Shown: piece after piece, positions 5,950 through 51,964 of the stretch | Layout: the number at the start of each line of letters is the position of its first letter | Numbering within the stretch: position 1 is the first letter of the stretch | DNA from: Escherichia coli | GTDB lineage: Bacteria; Pseudomonadota; Gammaproteobacteria; Enterobacterales; Enterobacteriaceae | NCBI RefSeq assembly: GCF_002854065.1 | Contig: NZ_CP024151.1 | Direction: 5' to 3' (one strand) | DNA: 64,000 nt | Made by a program: the position numbers and the translations under genes | Notes under the pieces: model-generated | What the model was told of the DNA's origin: nothing | What the model saw: only the letters and a program-made list of their open reading frames with translations | Databases searched by the model: none

Positions 5950-6316
5950 TGCATATCTGTCTGTCCACAGGACAGGCAGTGAATAGGTTTTCTTTTTAAA
6001 TGAATGTAGTTAAGTAGTTTAAAGGAGATATAAACAGGTGTTTAAAAGATACATTGCACCCTGTAAGGCTGGCGGATGGCGCTTTATGACATGAACGGTT
6101 GTAACCTTATGGGGAAGTCCCTTGCAGTTAAATGTGGATAAGCAAAATTCCTCGTCTGTGAGGCGTGTTTTGTATCAAAAACAGGAGGGACCGGATGCAC
6201 CTGAAGGTGGATGATGAGGTTGTTTTTTGTATGCGGTGCTGTTTTTTTGTTCGCCGACAGGCTTCAGGCGTGCAGATGCCTCCGGTGCGGGCCGGATTAT
6301 TCAGAGGAGGTCACTT
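5950..6316. other. RepFIIA vegetative origin region (oriR) downstream of repA1
   Basis: Non-coding stretch immediately 3' of repA1 with AT-rich tract (about 5990-6050) and a consensus DnaA box TGTGGATAA at 6134..6142; position matches IncFII oriR. Boundaries approximate. Confidence 0.5.
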
Positions 6317-7174
6317 TCAGGGGGAAGCTGTGGCCAGCCGGCTGTAATTACGGTTACGTGACAGAATCATGCGCTCTTTCACACGACGCTCCACTTCGCG
6401 TTTTACCGCCTCACGATTGGCAGTGAAGCGCCCTTCCGAGATTTCACGCGTCAGCTGCCGTTTCACCAGGGTGACGATATCCTGACGTTCCCTGTTCGCA
6501 TCACGACGCGCACGGGCACGCTTTATTCCACGGGACTTAAGCTCTGTCTGGTAACTGCGGAAACGCTCACGCACAAAACGCCAGGCTTTCGCTATCAGTT
6601 CATCCATACCCAGGGTATCCAGTCCCTGCTTTTTGCGCTGTCTGTTTTCCCATTCAACACGACTGCGGCGCGCAGCAACTACTGCATCCTCAGACACATC
6701 AAGGGCGGCAAATAGCGCCGGTGTGAACGTGATATCGGTCGGAATGTAGCACCCGATAAGCGGATCATATTCCGTCTGGTAGGTAATCAGTCCCAGCTCT
6801 GCAAGGAACGTCAAGGCTCGGGTGGCCCGGGTGATGGAGAGTTTTCCGGCAGCAGACTCCGTCGCCAGTCCGCACTCAATGGCCAGCGTAGTGATGGAGC
6901 ACTGGACGCGGTTGGCCAGCGGGTCATAGTGAAAACACAGCCCCTGCAGCAGCGCATCAATAGCCCGGCGACGCAGTACCGGTGGCATGCGCCGACGCAG
7001 TCCCTTCGAACGGGCATGTGCCACATGAATGGCGAAATCAAAACGGGAGGTGAAGCCCACCGCCTTTTCCATCAGTTTTTCGCAGAACTTCAGCGTTCCG
7101 GCACCTTCACGGGGTGTGAACACCGGATTCGGGTTTTTAACCTGTGAATAGTATTTTTGAAGGAGATCAGCCAT
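6317..7174 (-). CDS. repA1: Replication initiator RepA1 (IncFII / RepFIIA)
   Basis: 285 aa from [77 protein letters not shown]..., near-identical in pattern to R100/R1 RepA1; SD GGAGGGGG before ATG at 7174. Confidence 0.92.
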
Positions 7175-7250
7175 GTCCCCCTCCAACACTATTCCCCCTC
7201 CTACGGGCGGCAACTAGCTCGTCTGGGCCGACACGTAAAGTTTCGAACAT
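7167..7250 (-). CDS. Candidate repA leader peptide (tap/repA6-like), translationally coupled to repA1
   Basis: In-frame Met 27 codons before a stop (GGACATGGCTGA) that overlaps the repA1 start; position matches the IncFII tap-repA coupling. Start codon uncertain; it is the 3' end of a longer 164-codon ORF. Confidence 0.3.
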
Positions 7251-7779
7251 ATCTGGTCTGAACCAGATGGTTCCTCCATCAAAAGCGATGAGATGAAGAT
7301 CATTATCAAGAGTTTTGAGGGCTCTCCAAACACGAGTGTATGAACCTCCACTACAAACTGAAAGCTCTTTAACAGATAAGTTAACTTTGTTCGTATCAGG
7401 GATGTAGTGTGCGCACATTACTTGTACGAGGGAAACATAAAAACTAACCATCGACGCGCTGATTTTATTTTTACGTTTGCCATGCGCTATTGCAAGAAAA
7501 CCTCTGATGAAGATCAGATGCTTGAAGGAGTCAAAATGAGCCCTTTTCTGGAGAAGGCAGCAAAACGGGTGAGGATACTTGCTGGAATCAATGTGAAGAT
7601 CTGATTCAATCCCACCCGCTATTACTGAATGTGTTTCATGATTAGCCACACCATCCTGCACTTACAATGCACAGAAGGAGTGAGCACAGAAAGAAGTCTT
7701 GAACTTTTCCGGGCATATAACTATACTCCCCGCATAGCTGAATTGTTGGCTATGCGGTTTTATGGGGCCCCGGTAATCT

Positions 7780-7890
7780 TTCTAGTCGCCAAACTTGAAG
7801 AAGATTATCGGGGTTTTCGCTTTTCTGGCTCCTGTAAATCCACATCAGAACCAGTTCCCTGCCACCTTACGGCGTGGCCAGCCACAAAAT
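7780..7890 (+). ncRNA. copA: Putative CopA/CopT antisense copy-number control region
   Basis: Located in the repA leader just downstream of copB, opposite strand to repA; contains CGCCAA and GC-rich hairpin-capable sequence I associate with R1/R100 CopA/CopT. Exact ends and strand not verifiable without alignment. Confidence 0.35.
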
Positions 7891-7947
7891 TCCTTAAACG
7901 ATCAGCAATCTACCACTCACTCCTGAGATAAGCAAGAATGTGAATAT

Positions 7948-8205
7948 TTACGAAGTCGCTCTGCGTTTCAACTCTGATTCAATCAGTTTTTCAAGCATCT
8001 GCGCCTGAGTAATACCTTCCTCATCCGCAAGTTCACTCAGCCTGTCTTTTAACCGGGCCTGAATAACCGCATGAAAAGCCTTATGAGTGTTGCTTCTGCG
8101 AGCCAGAGAAGCTCTTTGCCTCTCTCTGGCCGGAACAGGGTTACCTTTCCGGTATGTACGCTTGGTGCCTGATGAGGAAGTCACTGCATTTTCTGTCTGC
8201 GACAT
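7948..8205 (-). CDS. copB: Replication copy-number repressor CopB (RepA2)
   Basis: 85 aa, [23 protein letters not shown]...; small basic protein immediately upstream of the repA leader, as in IncFII replicons. Confidence 0.8.
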
Positions 8206-8467
8206 CTCGCCTCCTCAATTCTCAAACAGGGATCGTTTCGCAGAGAATACTACAGTTTTTTGAAATCAGCGACTTGAAAGTTGTGACGATGATCTGTGTT
8301 GGCGCACAAATCATGTCTGATTACGACCGTTTAATGTGATTTTGATAATGAAATGACTGAAAAGCTGGAAATGCCTTAGCCAGGGTGCCGGCCCCGGGCG
8401 GGACCGGCTGTTTCTGGTATATAGGATGTCTGCCCCTGAAATACCTCACACTTCCGGAAAGCGGGGA

Positions 8468-8671
8468 CTTCCGTGCTTCGTAGGCCAGAGTTACCTGCAC
8501 CACTGTATTTCCTCTGTGAATATTCAGCTCACATAACCGTTCCCTGAATATCAGTGAAAAACACAACACCATGGCGCACACGGCGAGCAACCCGATAAGG
8601 GCATATTTCGTCATAAACTTTGACCTCTCTGCAAAGAAGAGGCTACAATCAGTAGTGTTAAGGTACTTCAT
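8468..8671 (-). CDS. srnB: Hok/Gef-family type I toxin homologue (SrnB-like)
   Basis: Translation MKYLNTTDCSLFFAERSKFMTKYALIGLLAVCAMVLCFSLIFRERLCELNIHRGNTVVQVTLAYEARK matches the SrnB sequence as I remember it; single TM helix plus conserved C-E-L motif. In this sequence the frame reads on to 8321 with no stop after ...EARK. Confidence 0.7.
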
Positions 8672-9619
8672 GCAGACCTCACGAGTTAATGGATTAACGA
8701 GTGGGGTCTTCGCATTTCTGGTACCTGCGTCTTGCCTGAACCAGAAAGGCTCAGACACCCGCCGCGATAATACCACATTCCCTGTTGCTGGCTATTACCC
8801 CCATTTGCCTGTTTTTGTTACAAAAACGCCGGGAGCGGGGGAAAACTTACTTTTTCCCGTTTCCGGGGGGGACAACTGAGCATTGCGAACGCGTCAGCTA
8901 CGATGTTCCGGTGATTGCTGATCAGCCCCTGTTGTATTCATAAACTAATTAACATTCATTCCGTCTGGTGCATAAATCTGCCCGTGAACATCTGCAGACA
9001 ATACCGACCATAAAAAAATAAATAATCCCAGTAGAATATATTTCCTCATATTATTATCCATAACAAATAAATGGCACCTGTACACCTGTATTTCAGGCAA
9101 TCCTGAATATTGCAGCGCACATTGAATAAGACGTTATTTCGTGACATTAATCACAAAATATAAAATCGCGACTTAATACGGAAAAAACTCTGTGCTACTC
9201 AGAACTGACTGGTCATACTGCCCGACCGGATATTAAAAAAGCAAATCTCATAAACTCCTTTCAGCCTTCTGACTCCTGGAGTAATGAAGGCTGCTTTTTC
9301 GTTACACCCTTCCCCGGCAGCGCCGGTAGCAGTGTTCAGCCCTTTTTCGGGCAAACTGCTGCCAGTCTGTCCGGGGCGCAACACAGGCAGCCCGTCGCCA
9401 TCCTTCTGCCGCTTCCATCCAGCGTCCACTGACCTCCAGAATAACGGCCCGGCTTCCGGCACGCTGCCAGCGCCAGACCTGACCGTTCCGTGAACTGTTT
9501 CTGAATCCATTCATCTTTATCACTCCTCTTTAACCCGTCAGTATTATGGTGTTAAATAATCTACTGAATTGGCTTCCTTTCGGGTACGGAAGTTTATTTC
9601 CTTTTAAGCCTTATTTCCC

Positions 9620-11028: not shown

Positions 11029-14000
11029 TCAGTCTCCGCCCAGGGTTTTCTCTTTCTGCAGGGCACGAACCATATCCCGCTCCATCTGCTGCAGTCGCTC
11101 CTGCAGCAGATTTTCCCGGGCAACATCCCGGACCGCTTCCCGCACCCGTTGTGATTCACGCAGCACACTCTCCGGCAGCGCGGCTTCCCGTTCAGATATG
11201 GCAGACCGGTCACGCTCCTGCCCGGCAATCTCCCTGACAGCCTGCTCTGTTTTGCCATCCGGCAGGTCAGGTTTGTTCTCTGCCATTTTACGGACAATTT
11301 CATCCGCACGGCGTTCCGTTTCACGGCGGATGGCCTCTTCAGCTTGCCGCTGTGCCAGTACCTCTGCCGTGACCGGTTCGCCATTTCCGGCTCCCGGCTG
11401 AACGCTGTTGTCCGGGATATCCCCCCACACGCGACCACCGGTGATGGTACCGGGATTCCACGGACGACCTTCACCGGCGATTCTTACCACCACACCGCTG
11501 TCAGGATTATCACGGGCAATCCGGACACCATCCTGCATATTATCAGCCAGCAGGCTCTCTCCGTTACGGCTGCCCTGCAGGGCCACGAACTGCGCATCCC
11601 CGCTGCCTTTCACCCGGCCTTCACCACTGAAGCCCCGCAGCCCGTTTCCGTCATCCGTGGTCAGCGGATTCAGCCAGATACCGGCGGACTTGCCGTTACG
11701 GTCAAAAGCCGGCAGTGCCACATACGGCTGCGGATATTTGCGCCCGGGTGCAATAAACCGTGCAGGATTGTCTCCCCCGGCAAGTCCCGCCTGACGGAGA
11801 ACGGCACGGCCGGCCGCCACGTCCCGCAGCTCCCGCGCCGTACTGAACAGCCGCTCTGCATTCATGACCTCCCGGTCCGATTTCGGCTCAAGCACATCGT
11901 GGGCAGTTCCTTTCTGTACGGCATTGTTAATGGCATCCGTCCAGCCCTGACGGTTATCGGTATACACCTGCACATGCTGCTTCATACGCGACAGGGCCAC
12001 GTAGGCTGACTCAAAGCCGGCCATCTGTTTCCGGCTGCCTTCCGTACCTTCAAGCGCGATGGCAAAGGTTTCACTTGCCCCCTGCGCACCGTGGGCGGTG
12101 ATGGCATAGGCCAGGTCAATATGTTGCTCTGCCCGCTCCTGACCGGGGCGAATCACCCGGGTCTGCTGTCCGTCCGACAGCGTGACACTGTCACCGGAAA
12201 CCGCTGTCACCGTCCAGACGCTGTTGGCCACATAACCGCGCTCCCGGTCACTCTTCGTGAAGCGCATCCGGTCACCGGTTCCCACCCGGATGGTGTCCGG
12301 GGTGTACAGTGTGACGCCTTCAGCCACCGCCTCCCGGGGCGAAATCAGCCGCGTGTTACCTTCAGCATCCTGCAGGGTTATCAGCCCGTCATCCCTGCTG
12401 ATACCGGCAATCCGGTGATACACATTATCCACCAGGGCAAGTGCGTCCCGATGTGTCTCCCAGGTGGAGAGACGACGCAGCTCCCCGTCGCGTATATTCG
12501 CTGTGTTCAGGACAGGCACCATGACCTGCTCTTTTCCCAGCTCACCGGCCTTTTCCCGTGCATCATGAATCATGCTGTTCAGCACGCGCCGGTCCTCATT
12601 CAGGTGCGTGACAATCAGCGTCTGCTCCCGTGCTTCCGGTGTTCTGCCGGTATAGTCGCGGACAATGGCTTCATACAGTGTCATGGGGACATCCGGGAAA
12701 GCCTCGCCTTTCAGCATCGCCTTCTGCTGCGCTTCTGCCAGTTTCGCTTCCTGGCTGTGACTGAACTCCATCACGGAGTGCTCCGGTGCCCATGCGCCCT
12801 CCAGACGTGGCACCTGAGACGGTTTCACACTCTCAAGCCCGGATAGTGCCCTTTCCACATCCCGGTTAATCAGGTTGTATACCGCCTCCCGCAGTTCCGG
12901 CGTCTGACGCACAATCTCCTTCATGATGGCCACATCGGCAGCACTGCGCGTCTGCTGGAGACGGAAAGGCTGACCGGGCGCGATGGCCTGCAGCTGGTCC
13001 GTGTCACCACTGGCCACGGCACGACCGCCACCGGCCGCAATCAGGGCGTATGCCCGTGCCATGTCGGTATTGCCCACCATTGAGCTCTCATCGAGCAGGA
13101 ACAGCGTGTTGCTGAAATCCGGCGTTTCTCCGCTGCGCTGCTGCAGCTGCGTGTCATGCAGAAAAGACGCCAATGTCTGCGCATCCACGCCGGCGCTGCG
13201 CATCTCCCCGACCGCACGGTGTGTGGGACCCAGCCCAACGACACGGGGACGCTCACTCTCCGGCAGCATGTTCACGGCTGACATCACCGCCCGGAACTGT
13301 GTGGTCTTACCCACACCGGCATAGCCCTGCACCACCGTGAAGCGGTCGGACGTTTCCAGTATCATGCGGGTGGCGGCGCGCTGTCCTGATGTCAGTTTCT
13401 CCATGAGTTCGCCAGGTACTCTCTCCATCAGCGGCGTGACCGCCTCCTTACCTTCGAGAATATGGCGAAGAATGCTCTTTTCTGCCTCATACGACGCACG
13501 GGAAACCAGCAGGCCTGTGCCATAGTCTTTTGCCACATCCACATACAGTAAATCACCCCGTTTTATCTGCGCATCGATTTCCCCTCCCAGTTCAGTAAAA
13601 CTGGTTCCTTCTGCAGCAAACGACTTCGCCTCTGTCAGCAGGTCCACCATGCTGAAGGCCAGGTTTTTACTTTCCAGCACAGGAAGGGCCAGATGAATGG
13701 CCTGCTGTGCCGGCGTGTGAAGCCCGGCTTTCTGCAGACTGATAGCGGTTTCCAGCAATGTCTCACCGGCACGCGCCTTTATCTGCTCAGAAACCACCGT
13801 AAAGGAGGGATGGCGGGCAAGTTTTTCCGCAGTACGGGTTTCATCCAGTGAGGAATACAGCCGGACATCACGACCGCTGCGGGCCAGACCGTTCAGGGTG
13901 GCGTTGTCCATTGCCATCTGTGTGACGGAGGCAAAAACCTTCGCACTGTCGCTGACGGAATGCCCGGGCGTTTCCACCCAGCCGCTCTCCAGCTTCAGTG

Positions 14001-19967: not shown

Positions 19968-22789
19968 AATGGCCCCTTCAATCGTTCTTTCTTATCATCC
20001 ACCATCTGTTTTAACGCATCTTCAGACGGTGTTGGCATTAATTTCTGTCGTTTATTTTCTTCATTATATCTGTTGTTTTGTTGAATTTCTTCCTGTTTGT
20101 GATTATTTTTTAACTCTGAATATTGTCTGTCTACAATATTTTCTTCGCCATGAATACTATTCTGAGTATCTCCGATATTCCCTTTATATTCTGTGACCAT
20201 ATTATCAACCTGATGTTTTACATCATTACGGATATTACTGTCCTGCGTTCTTTGATCAATAATGGCCTGATGCCCCTGATGGTCAGCAATAATATCCTGG
20301 CTGCCACCACCCGAAGGTACGCTCTCCATTCCTTTACCAATATCCCCACGGGATTCACGCCAGGCATTATCAACACCAGGCTGCACCTGTTCCTGAACAA
20401 AAGACCATGCCATCGCCCGACGGCGTTCTGCAATCTCCGGTGAACTGGTGTTTGTCAGAATAGCTTCGGCATCCTGCGGTGCGTGTTTCATCACATACTG
20501 TGCAAACTGTTGCGACAAATCTTCGCTCATCTGCCCACTCATGCTTTCAGTACGGGATGCCATTTCAGCATATTCATGGCTGCGGGTCATATTCGTCGTG
20601 TACTGGTCGTAACTCTGTTTCGCTGAGTTCAGGGCTGCAGACAACTGGTCCACGCGGGAATCGGCATTATTGTCAGTATGGCTGCCGGATTCACTGACTT
20701 TGCGACTGGTAAAGTAATCGCTGGCCTCTTTAAAGTCCTTACTGGCTTTAGCATCGATATCATGGCGAGCATCATGGGTAGCCCTGCTGCCACTACTTGC
20801 TGAATGTGAGTCATCATCCGTTGCATCCAGGCTCCCCTTAAATCCACCTCTGATGCCTACCCCACCACCAACACCAAGAATTTTAGGTTTAACCCCCCAT
20901 TCAGCATGAGCATCAGCATACATTCCACCAGATAGCCTGGTACTTGTTGATGCCAGTTCCTGAGTCGCCTGCTCATTACTGATATTATGCGCCTTCGCAT
21001 AGCTTTCCACTGCACTGCGCATACGGCTGGCCATCATGGAGTCCTGAGCACTCATCGTGCTGTCAGCACCACCGGTGACAGAATCACTGCTCCCCCGGTT
21101 AGAACCAAACTGACTGAGCGTGTTCCAGGCACTGGCAATACTGCTGCTGAACCCATGCAGGGCACTTTCTGCTCTGTTCGATGCTTCCCGGGCCATTTCC
21201 TGTTGTGCCGCCGCAATCTGACGCGTTGCATTGATGCCGACCGGTAACCGGGACATCGCTCCGCTTGCATCCATCACCATATTACCGTCACGGGTCTGTG
21301 TGGCGGTTGCGCCACTGCCGGTCTGGTACATCATCTGACCAAACGACGTGGTGCTGTTGGTGCTCCAGCTGAAGCCGTTAACATTCTCCGTCTGCATGTT
21401 GCCGTAGGAGTAATTACCGTCAACCACACTGCCTGCTGCACTGGCGGTCGGGCTGATAGCAGAGGAAGCGAAATGGCTGTACACACTGGAAAATCCTGCC
21501 CCGAGCCCCCTGACCATCATCCAGGATAATGGCGGGATCATCATGGAAAGATACCCGGCAGTGGAAGCCAGATCGGAGTATTTCAGCTGTATCTGTGAAA
21601 TTTCCGAGAGCACCACCGGTGCACCATTCTGCTTTGCATAAAATGTCATGGCGCTGTTCAGAATGGCGTACAACATTGGCCATGACTGCAACCACATCAG
21701 GGCAAACACATAGCCTTTCAGGACGGACAGCGTCAGTTTGTTGAAGACAGCCGCCAGTACCAGGAGCGGGAAAATACCGATGGCGATCCCCGTCAGGATG
21801 GTCTGCGTCATGGGCAGTGTCCGCATCGCCACATGACCGATGGAGACATGTGCCAGACGTTGCTTCTCCATCGATGATGTGGTGGCCAGATTCACCAGGC
21901 TGGCCGAATCACCATTACGTGCGGCATAACTGGTGATCCCCTCCTTCAGCGCATTGATGGTGACATTCTGGCGGATGATCTGGCTGGCTGATTTACTTGA
22001 GCCATAGAAGTAACTGTAACTGTCGCCAATCAGCGTACTGAACAACAGGTTCGGATCAGGGCGTCCACCAAATAGCTGCTGGGCATAATAATGCCATGTT
22101 TTTCCGCCACTCTGTGTGTCCAGATTCAGCTTGTCTTTCAGCGAAACCGACGCGTCCTTACAGGTCACGAAATTATTATTGCTGTCATAAACGCCCCGCA
22201 GCGGACTGGGGCGGGAAAAAATCAGCGTGTAAGGATCAGCGGAGGCCATCAGTTCCTCCAGCGTGTATTTGTGGTTCAGGTAAATATCCCCCATCACGCA
22301 GTTCTGCACATAATCCTGGAAAAGATTGGCGATTTCCGGATTACGGGACAAAAAGTCGGTGCTTTTTGATACCAGTTCTGCGCCAAACAGCATCCCCGTT
22401 TTGCTGTAGGTGACACTGTCCGGTTGCGTGAAGATCATCTCGTAACTGGCCACCATTGCATGCCCGATACGGGTCGTCAGTGAAAGTGGCATCGCCAGTC
22501 CGACCGGCACATTATCCACCCGGTGAACTTTGACCAGGTCACTGTTATCAATAATCTGCACCGATGTGCGGACATTAACCAGCAGGCTGATAAGCACAAA
22601 CACGGCCACCCAGCCCAGCAAATCCATCACGTTGTGCCGCTGTACCCACATTACGGCCACCGCGAGAACAGACAATGTGAGCGCAATTTTTTCAATGGAA
22701 TCCCACGTCCGGGTCCCCATAAAGGCGGCAATGGCATTCAGGTTATTCCGCAACCACTCACCACCGGCAATCACATAAACTTCATTCAC
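19964..22789 (-). CDS. traG: TraG (mating-pair stabilisation / entry-exclusion partner; VirB6-like N-terminal domain)
   Basis: 941 aa; multi-TM N-terminus and large periplasmic C-terminal domain; position after traH. Confidence 0.92.
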   Translation of the reverse strand: MNEVYVIAGGEWLRNNLNAIAAFMGTRTWDSIEKIALTLSVLAVAVMWVQRHNVMDLLGWVAVFVLISLLVNVRTSVQIIDNSDLVKVHRVDNVPVGLAMPLSLTTRIGHAMVASYEMIFTQPDSVTYSKTGMLFGAELVSKSTDFLSRNPEIANLFQDYVQNCVMGDIYLNHKYTLEELMASADPYTLIFSRPSPLRGVYDSNNNFVTCKDASVSLKDKLNLDTQSGGKTWHYYAQQLFGGRPDPNLLFSTLIGDSYSYFYGSSKSASQIIRQNVTINALKEGITSYAARNGDSASLVNLATTSSMEKQRLAHVSIGHVAMRTLPMTQTILTGIAIGIFPLLVLAAVFNKLTLSVLKGYVFALMWLQSWPMLYAILNSAMTFYAKQNGAPVVLSEISQIQLKYSDLASTAGYLSMMIPPLSWMMVRGLGAGFSSVYSHFASSAISPTASAAGSVVDGNYSYGNMQTENVNGFSWSTNSTTSFGQMMYQTGSGATATQTRDGNMVMDASGAMSRLPVGINATRQIAAAQQEMAREASNRAESALHGFSSSIASAWNTLSQFGSNRGSSDSVTGGADSTMSAQDSMMASRMRSAVESYAKAHNISNEQATQELASTSTRLSGGMYADAHAEWGVKPKILGVGGGVGIRGGFKGSLDATDDDSHSASSGSRATHDARHDIDAKASKDFKEASDYFTSRKVSESGSHTDNNADSRVDQLSAALNSAKQSYDQYTTNMTRSHEYAEMASRTESMSGQMSEDLSQQFAQYVMKHAPQDAEAILTNTSSPEIAERRRAMAWSFVQEQVQPGVDNAWRESRGDIGKGMESVPSGGGSQDIIADHQGHQAIIDQRTQDSNIRNDVKHQVDNMVTEYKGNIGDTQNSIHGEENIVDRQYSELKNNHKQEEIQQNNRYNEENKRQKLMPTPSEDALKQMVDDKKERLKGPL

Positions 22790-39536: not shown

Positions 39537-40223
39537 TTACTTAACGCTATAAAATTCACGAATTATATTTAATAGCAAATCTATTTTCCCTTTATAGATA
39601 CATGACACTCTGAATAAATCAAAGTGTTCAAAAAATTCTTTTATTTTCCGTTTAACTGGTTTAATTCGATCCTCAGATGCTCTGTCTGTAATACCCAATT
39701 CTCTGGCAATTGTTGCATGACCAACACCCAGCATATAAAAAGAGAAAACAAGCAATGTCCCGGGGGAAAGATCATTCCATATCGTTAATTTATCAGAAGT
39801 ATTTGTATTACTTCCACTCTGACTTAACGCAAAAAATGGATAATCAGGAAACGGATTAATTTGCCATAAAACAACAGATTCGTCATTATAAAAAGAAACA
39901 TTCTCCATCCTTATCTGATAGATTTCGCCATGAAAATTAAAACGACGACAAAATGCAGAGCCATGTCCAAGAGCCTGGCATTCCAATTCAAGTGATGAAA
40001 GAAAAATTTCAACCTGCAGACGTATATAACTCTCTCCGGATAAGGGTTTATCTTCTCTGGAAAAGAGTTCAATAAAAGCCCCATTGGCATAAAGGATTTT
40101 CCGGTTTTTGTTACGGACACAAACCGGAACGGGAGAATTTCTGTAGATATTCTGAACGTTAAGGATGTACTTATTTACAGATTGACTGTTAAGTGGCCTT
40201 TCTCTACGATCCAGCGCACACAT
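39537..40223 (-). CDS. traJ: TraJ transfer operon activator
   Basis: 228 aa from [14 protein letters not shown]...; C-terminal HTH; start at 40223 preceded by GGAGG and embedded in the FinP-complementary leader. Confidence 0.85.
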
Positions 40224-40296
40224 AGGAACCTCCGTTAAGGATTCTATGGACAGTCGATGCAGGGAGTTCAGACCTCCCTGCATCGGCGATTTTCAG
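40217..40296 (+). ncRNA. finP: FinP antisense RNA (complementary to traJ 5' UTR/start)
   Basis: Two stem-loops on the plus strand opposite the traJ RBS/start: CATAGGAACCTCCGTTAAGGATTCTATG and GATGCAGGGAGTTCAGACCTCCCTGCATC followed by GGCGATTTT (intrinsic terminator). Ends approximate. Confidence 0.6.
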
Positions 40297-40413
40297 TTTC
40301 AATTTTTAACGTGGCATTAACCACGTAATTAATATACTAATTATCTGACGTATTGTCATCTTTTTGAATCATAAAAATTCTTATATTTGAACCAACTCAA
40401 ACTTCATTTTCAT

Positions 40414-44166: not shown

Positions 44167-44325
44167 CTACTTACCGGATTCGTAAGCCATGAAAGCCGCC
44201 ACCTCCCTGTGTCCGTCTCTGTAACGAATCTCGCACAGCGATTTTCGTGTCAGATAAGTGAATATCAACAGTGTGAGACACACGATCAACACACACCAGA
44301 CAAGGGAACTTCGTGGTAGTTTCAT
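44167..44325 (-). CDS. hok: Hok-family type I toxin (flmA/hok-like)
   Basis: Reverse translation [52 protein letters not shown], a 52-aa Hok; below the 60-aa track cut-off, found by reading the overlapping mok frame. Confidence 0.9.
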
Positions 44326-44383
44326 GGCCTTCTTCTCCTTGCGCAAAGCGCGGTAAGAGGCTATCCTGATGTGGACTAGACAT
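44171..44383 (-). CDS. mok: Mok (modulator of killing), overlapping reading frame of the hok locus
   Basis: 70-aa track ORF overlapping hok in an alternative frame and starting upstream, as in hok/mok/sok loci. Confidence 0.7.
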
Positions 44384-44400
44384 AGGGATGCCTCGTGGTG
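44325..44400 (+). ncRNA. sok: Predicted Sok-type antisense RNA
   Basis: Inferred from locus architecture (antisense to the mok translation-initiation region); no sequence-level confirmation, coordinates approximate. Confidence 0.35.
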
Positions 44401-44604
44401 GTTAATGAAAATTAACTTACTACGGGGCTATCTTCTTTCTGTCACACAACACGGCAACAAACCACCTTCACGTCATGAGGCAGAAAGCCTCAAGCGCCGG
44501 GCACATCATAGCCCATATACCTGCACGCTGACCACACTCACTTTCCCTGAAAATAATCCGCTCATTCAGACCGTTCACGGGAAATCCGTGTGATTGTTGC
44601 CGCA

Positions 44605-51496: not shown

Positions 51497-51727
51497 TCAG
51501 TTAAAAGCGCGTTTCAGTTCGAGTGTGCGGAGCACCTGCCCGAAGGCCGTGTTTTTCATGGCGGGGATGTGTACACCACGCCCCCGGTGAAAACTCCGGG
51601 CAATGTGTCGCCCGAAGGCTTTCAGCACGGGGTCAATTTCCGGCGCGGGGATGTCTTCGCGTCTGAAACGGGGATGACGGCGGGGCTTTACAGCCGCTGC
51701 GGAAGGTGAAACAATACTTACTGTCAT
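51497..51727 (-). CDS. Hypothetical small basic protein, 76 aa
   Basis: First ORF downstream (minus-sense) of repeat copy 3; Arg/Lys-rich. Confidence 0.45.
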   Translation of the reverse strand: MTVSIVSPSAAAVKPRRHPRFRREDIPAPEIDPVLKAFGRHIARSFHRGRGVHIPAMKNTAFGQVLRTLELKRAFN

Positions 51728-51964
51728 AAATGAAACTCCTTATGACAAATTGGTTAACAATGCCGTCAAAATTGGTTGTGCAATTCTTACGGCGTGGATT
51801 AAGCAGGTCCCTGACCTGCTTTTTTCATATCTGCGTCTGACGTTCTACGGTGTTTTCCTCCTTCTGTTCCTGCGTTCTCATTACCTGCCAGCCGGATGAC
51901 TGACAGAACAAATAAATGCATATTGCCGGAGCCTGAAATAAATCCTGATTTTTAAAGAACATCA

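Follow-up and report, generated by a model that had tools for sequence, protein, structure and literature searches.

The IncFII-type replicons are the textbook case of copy-number control by an antisense RNA, and in Enterobacteriaceae the virulence and resistance plasmids of the F type are driven by them. In the IncI-alpha/IncB (repY-repZ) and IncL/M (repB-repA) plasmids, an antisense RNA controls a leader open reading frame (ORF) whose translation is needed for translation of the initiator. The hairpin at the tap/repA junction has been characterised experimentally in plasmid R100, and its function in R1 is known from the literature. The antisense RNA CopA of R1 blocks translation of the leader peptide gene tap, to which translation of the initiator gene repA is coupled (PMC5717011). 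Here we describe a variant of this arrangement in a 64,000-nucleotide (nt) stretch of Escherichia coli DNA (assembly GCF_002854065.1, contig NZ_CP024151.1; the whole stretch is hereafter called the window), in which an extra cistron of 160 codons, ORF160, lies between tap and the initiator gene repA1.

From comparison of the sequences, we read the locus as a RepFIC-type variant of the IncFII antisense-RNA-controlled replicon, organized as a four-cistron operon (copB-tap-ORF160-repA1) in place of the usual three, in which translation would be relayed from tap through ORF160 to repA1. ORF160 itself would derive from an ancient duplicate of repA codons 1 to ~172 (the N-terminal 60%) that has since diverged; the helical N-terminal part and the winged helix are kept, and the C-terminal third with its long helices is gone. 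We assign this reading as a whole a probability of roughly 0.65. The four genes are all located on the minus strand (Table 1).

An extra cistron between tap and repA1

The interval between copB and repA1 comprises 773 nt (7947..7175). A preliminary description, made from the letters of the window alone, had given 774 nt and had called the interval overlong against a spacing of 300-400 nt in R1 and R100; this is borne out, as the R100 interval measures 304 nt (NC_002134, copB end 88507, repA start 88812). In a nucleotide alignment the interval was not colinear with R100. With blastn, two segments of the window aligned, 8259..7640, which runs from copB to where tap ends, and 7173..6200, with repA1 and the sequence beyond it (92%); positions 7639..7174 had no match in R100. 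The surplus of ~470 nt sits precisely between the end of tap and repA1, and the flanks are 91-95% identical to R100. The earlier suggestion that the leader contains an insertion is therefore true relative to R100, but it missed that the insert is a conserved protein-coding cistron. A mobile element as the source of the extra DNA was rejected, since we found no transposase and since the boundaries, which show no inverted repeats, fall at a start-codon context on one side and in a conserved part of repA1 on the other.

The preliminary description had also pointed to a 164-codon minus-strand ORF at 7661..7167. This frame is present and terminates with a TGA 8 nt into repA1 (GGACATGGCTGA), but it is the GTG at 7649, and not that at 7661, which is conserved as a start. 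Position 7649 is also where the NCBI Prokaryotic Genome Annotation Pipeline (PGAP) begins the gene in an identical plasmid, and the codon at this place is GTG or TTG in the homologues. The TAA stop of tap overlaps this start by 8 nt (GTGGCTAA), in the same geometry as the R100 tap/repA overlap (GTGACTGA), and the ORF160 start occupies the slot that the repA start has in R1 and R100. The ORF160 stop, in turn, lies 8 nt inside repA1 (ATGGCTGA). Whereas the tap stop of an IncFII replicon overlaps the repA start, the overlap in the window (7642..7649) falls on ORF160, and repA1 starts 475 nt further on. That control might depart from the textbook arrangement was thus a fair reading of the architecture, in which tap is apparently coupled to ORF160 and not to repA1, but tap itself, which had gone unmentioned, is intact (95% nt identity to R100 tap), and the layout is common, occurring in ~500 plasmids.

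ORF160 is a homologue of RepA

ORF160 and RepA1 share 34% identity over 98 amino acids (aa) in BLASTP (E 3e-9), and hhalign matched ORF160 residues 22-153 with RepA residues ~23-172 at 97.4% probability (E 1.2e-11). The predicted structure of ORF160 is a winged-helix fold (winged helix-turn-helix, wHTH), preceded by ~25 N-terminal and followed by ~18 C-terminal residues that are modelled as disordered and are poorly conserved. The same core is predicted for RepA1, followed there by long helices (residues 163-183, 191-247 and 255-282) that are missing from ORF160. The architecture of a full-length RepA, with its C-terminal helical region (~175-285), is therefore not what ORF160 has; its C-terminus corresponds to RepA residue ~172. 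Across 15 ORF160 homologues 55 alignment columns are invariant, and these are concentrated in the wHTH and include the recognition-helix motif S-Y-x-R-V-W-R-x-L, the RepA counterpart of which is SITRATRAL. ORF160 retains the S-x-T-R-x-x-R-A-L motif of the putative recognition helix of RepA.

The homologues, 66-97% identical to ORF160, were found by database searches in Escherichia, Salmonella salamae, Citrobacter, Lelliottia, Klebsiella and metagenomes. Their length is 156-163 aa in nearly all cases; two reach 198-199 aa through an N-terminal extension, and none is full length. An ORF160-type N-terminus on a full-length RepA was found neither in a search of 5.8 billion proteins nor in a profile search of 1.84 billion representative proteins; the latter gave 20 matches, the distant ones among them being short RepA-like proteins of 176-241 aa, and no relative exceeded 241 aa. 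Length and synteny are kept in the homologues of 66-82% identity, and each diverged locus that we recovered has the order copB - (tap) - ORF of ~159 codons - repA (285 aa). The 8-nt overlaps at both junctions are preserved in 7 further lineages (Salmonella, Citrobacter, Klebsiella and metagenomes), with a 4-nt ATGA overlap between the ORF and repA in one lineage.

A few natural variants depart from this pattern. The homologue of locus L008 (3001-3600; P0017, 198 aa) carries a ~40-residue N-terminal extension (MAEQNKSQAKWDGVPSDEQIRLPNL...) and has the ATGA overlap with repA; the extension resembles the N-terminus of a 339-aa RepA branch (HWSQL..EEQ.RFWQ) and may signal further recombination. 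Among rare variants (P0065 with 182 aa, P0003, P0053, P0057 and P0063) there is one in-frame fusion of tap and ORF160, and in several others ORF160 runs into unrelated C-terminal tails, suggesting insertion or deletion junctions.

Purifying selection on the ORF160 protein

Pairwise ratios of nonsynonymous to synonymous substitution rates (dN/dS, omega) for ORF160 are 0.20-0.48; omega is put at 0.25-0.42 with bootstrap 95% intervals below 1, against 0.5-1.3 for the two other reading frames of this DNA. Variable sites are distributed over the three codon positions as 52/43/86, a third-position excess with p 2e-4. The ratios, their intervals, the comparison of frames and the codon-position excess together show that the amino-acid sequence of ORF160 is under purifying selection, beyond the mere upkeep of an open frame. 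Nor does ORF160 look like a second tap-like leader peptide, the sequence of which would not be selected as a folded protein, given its 160 aa, its low omega and its conserved wHTH core.

The main rival to the relayed four-cistron operon with a functional protein takes ORF160 for a relic, namely what recombination left of the 5′ part of an older or duplicated repA, serving as a translated spacer that carries the tap signal to repA1 while its peptide is inert. We regard this as unlikely, although it is the alternative that survives best. It is in line with the truncation of a RepA homologue within a mosaic region, with an omega above that of repA, with the poor conservation and modelled disorder of both ends of the protein and with the persistence of interrupted copies in multi-replicon plasmids. 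A spacer, however, needs only to be free of stop codons, and yet the confidence interval of omega is below 1 for ORF160 when the other frames are at ~1; the invariant residues are concentrated in the wHTH; and a length of 157-160 aa is held down to 66% identity. Moreover, the start contexts TGGCTAATC and TGGCTGATC are nearly identical, and an exact loss of the DNA from one to the other would give back the R100 layout, yet ~500 plasmids retain ORF160. A relic would account for the open frame but not for the selection at the amino-acid level.

The purifying selection indicates that the ORF160 protein, besides any part that its translation may play in the relay, probably has a role of its own. 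Most plausible to us, although we hold it loosely, would be that the protein binds DNA and modulates initiation, its synthesis being tied to that of RepA1 in a fixed ratio; it might, for example, compete in trans with the initiator, which acts in cis.

A second hairpin and a possible translational relay

Each of the two junctions is predicted to form a hairpin. The one at the tap/ORF160 junction was the same structure as that at the R100 tap/repA junction when both were folded with RNAfold (for R100, folding free energy -17.8, z -3.2), and tap ends in both replicons in an 8-nt overlap with the next cistron, the Shine-Dalgarno (SD) sequence of which is masked by this hairpin. The difference is that this next cistron is repA in R100 and ORF160 in the window. 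Unlike R1 and R100, the window has a second stop-start overlap and, with it, a second hairpin of opposite topology, in which the anti-SD arm lies downstream, within repA1. This junction hairpin encloses the repA1 SD GGAGG (7184..7180) and ATG (7174..7172); its 3′ arm is formed by repA1 codons 3-6, GAT CTC CTT CAA (GATCTCCTTCAA, ~7167..7156), and its outer stem pairs AATAGTG with ACTATT. None of 200 shuffled sequences folded as well (z -4.5), and the hairpin is predicted in all 8 lineages. In R100, where no ORF160 precedes repA, the anti-SD arm is missing (GAT CTT CAC CAA), and over its first ~11 codons the repA1 of the window is recoded relative to R100 (MADLLQ versus MTDLHQ). Among degenerate codons with an invariant amino acid, 13 of 140 are identical in all lineages over the whole repA gene versus 4 of 5 in the first ten codons.

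From the overlaps, the hairpins and their conservation, all of which are observed or predicted at the sequence level, we infer a relay by reinitiation. CopA would bind CopT and block translation of tap; ribosomes ending tap would reinitiate at ORF160, and ribosomes ending ORF160 would melt the second hairpin and reinitiate at repA1. By the time a ribosome stands on the ORF160 stop, its passage would have opened the 5′ arm and the 3′ arm would lie beneath it, so that the SD and the ATG 5 nt upstream would be freed. If translation runs from tap to ORF160 to repA1 in this manner, RepA1 synthesis would therefore still be controlled by CopA, through two steps of termination and reinitiation.

Alternatively, repA1 might be translated from its own strong SD irrespective of tap and ORF160, in which case the replicon would have partly escaped CopA control. 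This agrees with the GGAGG 5-6 nt before the repA1 ATG, and reinitiation in the relay is itself a deduction, but we consider it improbable. Both the SD and the ATG lie inside a hairpin of -19.9 kcal/mol that is kept in every lineage and the 3′ arm of which is frozen at synonymous sites, the stop-start overlap of ORF160 and repA1 is invariant, and a consensus scan found no promoter-like site within ORF160. In addition, a loss of copy-number control would be deleterious in a low-copy plasmid, as is established for R1.

Still less probable is that ribosomes shift into the +1 frame where ORF160 ends, prompted by the SD-like GGAGGGGG in the manner of prfB, and so produce an ORF160-RepA1 fusion of ~445 aa. 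The repA1 frame is indeed +1 relative to ORF160, and a G-rich SD-like element precedes the stop; however, the last sense codon, GGC (GAC in relatives), cannot re-pair in the +1 frame, the distance from SD to stop is 7 nt against 3 nt in prfB and fits initiation at the ATG, the overlap differs in L008 (ATGA), and no fused protein occurs among the database homologues, all of which are ≤199 aa. We rejected the fusion on these grounds of codon, spacing and missing fused homologues.

A functional element on the plus strand, either the 22-codon micro-ORF to which the preliminary description had drawn attention (7536..7604, AAGGAG-N5-ATG) or a longer antisense ORF of 65 codons, has next to no likelihood: the micro-ORF is well formed in the window and an antisense stretch of ~74 codons is free of stops in 5 of 7 lineages, but that stretch is interrupted in L002, L010 and L003 and the codon-position pattern fits the minus-strand frame. 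The micro-ORF was rejected as a chance feature because its ATG is CTG in 4 of 7 lineages, its AAGGAG is found only in the window and L003 has an internal stop; its ATG is the complement of an ORF160 His codon that is Gln in most homologues.

Several observations weigh against the relayed four-cistron operon with a RepA-derived ORF160. A Pfam scan of ORF160 found no domain, and against the NCBIfam RepA model TIGR03474 it scored 17.8 bits, far under the cutoff of 446.9; ORF160 is homologous to RepA, yet it stands outside the family by curated thresholds. The AlphaFold2 model of ORF160 is of moderate confidence (predicted local distance difference test score, pLDDT, 68.9). Purifying selection is weaker on ORF160 than on repA, for which omega is 0.04-0.26. 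None of the 19 pairs of the junction hairpin shows a compensatory change, both arms being invariant, so that conservation and energy are what speaks for it. As a strong SD (GGAGG-N5-ATG) precedes repA1 itself, some independent initiation could occur next to the relay. Finally, ORF160 is interrupted in an F′ plasmid and truncated in some of the rare natural variants, these plasmids having other replicons, and most of the inspected carriers have additional replicons such as FIB or FIA; plasmids with this replicon alone were looked for, and all those inspected to this end had further replicons.

Tandem replicons and probable exchange as a cassette

An analogous tandem of a short and a complete RepA occurs in Klebsiella and Salmonella plasmids (e.g. 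NZ_CP067256 and NZ_CP019175), with copB, tap, a short RepA of 183 aa that has the same endpoint in the RepA fold, an 8-nt overlap and then the full initiator. In locus L013, for instance, copB and a tap-like leader are followed by a short RepA (183 aa) that overlaps a RepA of 339 aa by 8 nt, and in L015 a 17-codon leader overlaps a short RepA of 188 aa by 8 nt (GTGAATGA) and the short gene abuts a 339-aa RepA. Truncated RepA proteins of 183-190 aa abutting a RepA of 337-339 aa were found in L013, L020, L021 and L015, which are Klebsiella, Salmonella and metagenome plasmids. The tandems resemble the window also in the tail codons AAT AGT G.. followed by a G-rich SD. They differ in that their short protein is far less diverged, with 44% identity to RepA residues 1-178 and 27% to ORF160, and in that the initiator after it, of 337-339 aa, represents another branch of PF02387. 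The L013-type short protein is present at 60-80% identity in 468 PLSDB plasmids, mostly from Klebsiella, in which PGAP annotates two consecutive 'repA' genes. The IncI-alpha/IncB and IncL/M systems share with the window an antisense RNA that acts on a short leader ORF, but they have two cistrons and a pseudoknot and no intercalated initiator paralogue.

Among the ORF160-bearing lineages, nucleotide identity is highest in ORF160 (77-87%), compared with 77-83% in the copA region, 71-88% in tap, 66-75% in repA and 60-73% in copB. The left boundary of the extra DNA relative to R100 is exactly the start-codon context, and the right boundary is reached ~33-50 nt into repA1: over its first ~32 nt repA1 matches the ORF160-bearing lineages, and thereafter R100. 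ORF160 and its hairpin thus seem to behave as a cassette that is exchanged by homologous recombination among otherwise divergent IncFII replicons. Such exchange explains why the synonymous divergence (dS) of ORF160, 0.2-0.6, is below that of the adjacent repA, 0.7-2.2 (loci L002-L019); constraint at the RNA level inside ORF160 may be an additional cause. The start contexts GTGGCTAATC and ATGGCTGATC nearly repeat each other, which is consistent with an origin of ORF160 by partial tandem duplication of repA and would also allow its precise loss.

Taking the two groups together, we tentatively suggest, while thinking it rather doubtful, that ORF160 and its Klebsiella-type counterparts represent an unrecognised third, protein-based layer of IncFII control. 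They would be trans-acting 'half-initiators' with the recognition helix of RepA but without its effector C-terminus, kept in a fixed ratio by a three-cistron relay, damping initiation or hindering competing IncFII replicons and spreading as a cassette with a coupling hairpin of its own.

Distribution and relation to RepFIC

Identical or near-identical DNA is present in ~500 PLSDB plasmids, including ColV/ColBM virulence plasmids such as pAPEC-O1-ColBM, and the analogous tandem in ~470 Klebsiella/Salmonella plasmids. The exact ORF160 sequence occurs on 269 contigs. RefSeq names the protein 'hypothetical protein', and the extra gene is labelled there only in this way or as a second 'repA'. MOB-suite assigns the identical plasmids to IncFIC. 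What the F128 plasmid (L022, NZ_CP014273.1 56454-59570) retains, at 98.9% identity, is copB, tap and the initial 265 nt of the insert, after which follows a transposon with a recombinase (resolvase) gene; this RepFIC copy lacks repA1. Classically, the RepFIC of F is described as interrupted by Tn1000, and the arrangement in F128 fits this description. Both the identity with the F remnant and the IncFIC typing place the replicon of the window in RepFIC.

Saadi et al. 1987 (also Saadi, Maas and Bergquist 1984/1987) reportedly described a RepFIC 'repA1' that is ~40% similar to the RepFIIA RepA1 and lies in a non-homologous region, which would fit ORF160, and a minimal RepFIC fragment of P307 reportedly replicates autonomously. 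In this older picture of RepFIC from P307 and F the ORF after the leader was reportedly taken as 'repA1', whereas the window has a 160-aa truncated paralogue in that place and then a complete, R100-like repA1. In the literature that we searched we found no functional study of ORF160; what it offers are passing mentions of the ORF in genome papers. The sequence and the IncFIC label are therefore already known; what appears to be new is the reading of ORF160 as an intercalated, selected and doubly coupled half-RepA.

If the relay is real, CopA control would reach the initiator through two successive reinitiations, which should change the gain and the noise with which copy number is controlled. 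Should the truncated RepA prove active, it would be a new regulator of plasmid replication or incompatibility and a possible target for plasmid curing; to our knowledge, curing strategies at present use only copA and copB.

Standard parts of the replicon and neighbouring features

The window has the parts expected of the IncFII family, namely a copB repressor gene, the CopA RNA, tap and a RepA initiator with a DnaA-box region, and these are the same genes and RNA as in R1/R100 (RepFIIA), recognised at curated thresholds (Table 1). RepA1 is 95% identical to R100 RepA at the amino-acid level (92% nt), and the 300 nt past repA1 are 94% identical to R100 and form a candidate oriR.

Table 1 Features of the copB-repA1 region, with positions in the window
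Feature	Position	Strand	Basis and remarks
copB/repA2	7948..8205	-	85-aa transcriptional repressor of the repA promoter; Pfam PF10723 RepB-RCR_reg, E 3.1e-31
Promoter-like site TTGAAA-17-AATATT	7943..7971	-	At the end of copB; consensus scan only
CopA antisense RNA	7734..7822	+	Rfam RF00042, full length, 93.6 bits (gathering score 60)
Promoter-like site TTGAAC-17-TATACT	7699..7727	+	Just upstream of CopA; consensus scan
tap	7642..7716	-	24-codon leader peptide; TIGR03475, 59.4 bits (cutoff 35.05)
tap/ORF160 hairpin	7647..7682	-	CTCCTTCTGTGCATTGTAAGTGCAGGATGG; RNAfold; pairs tap codons with the ORF160 ribosome-binding region
ORF160	7167..7649	-	Extra cistron; probable C-terminally truncated, diverged RepA paralogue with wHTH core; longest ORF from GTG 7661, 164 codons
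ORF160/repA1 junction hairpin	7146..7194	-	-19.9 kcal/mol, z -4.5, 0/200 shuffles fold as well
repA1	6317..7174	-	285-aa replication initiator; TIGR03474, 582 bits (cutoff 446.9)
DnaA box	6133..6141	-	TTATCCACA; R100-like origin region downstream of repA1; read from sequence

In the identical plasmid, PGAP names copB/repA2 'replication regulatory protein RepA'. The promoter-like site at the end of copB occupies the position of PrepA in R1 and is a putative PrepA by analogy with the R1 literature (PMC5717011). The complement of CopA on the minus strand is the CopT target within the repA mRNA leader. An Rfam match to PK-repZ at 7696..7821 (27 bits, under the gathering score of 44) was rejected as due to the stem-loop that is common to CopA and Inc-RNA.

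Just upstream of copB lies a hok/sok (srnB-like) type I toxin-antitoxin locus (8468..8760, minus strand), with a Hok/Gef toxin ORF at 8674..8468 (PF01848, E 1.6e-7) and sok at 8602..8760 (Rfam, 94.5 bits); a second sok match is located at 44323..44499 on the minus strand. Further Rfam matches at 9222..9405, 13374..13450, 21985..22070 and 51722..51824, all on the plus strand, and at 40217..40326 comprise the antisense RNAs AS-pc02, AS-traI, AS-traG and AS-pc01, FinP and the traJ 5′ untranslated region. This set is typical of an F-type conjugative backbone, and the window is part of an F-like conjugative plasmid.

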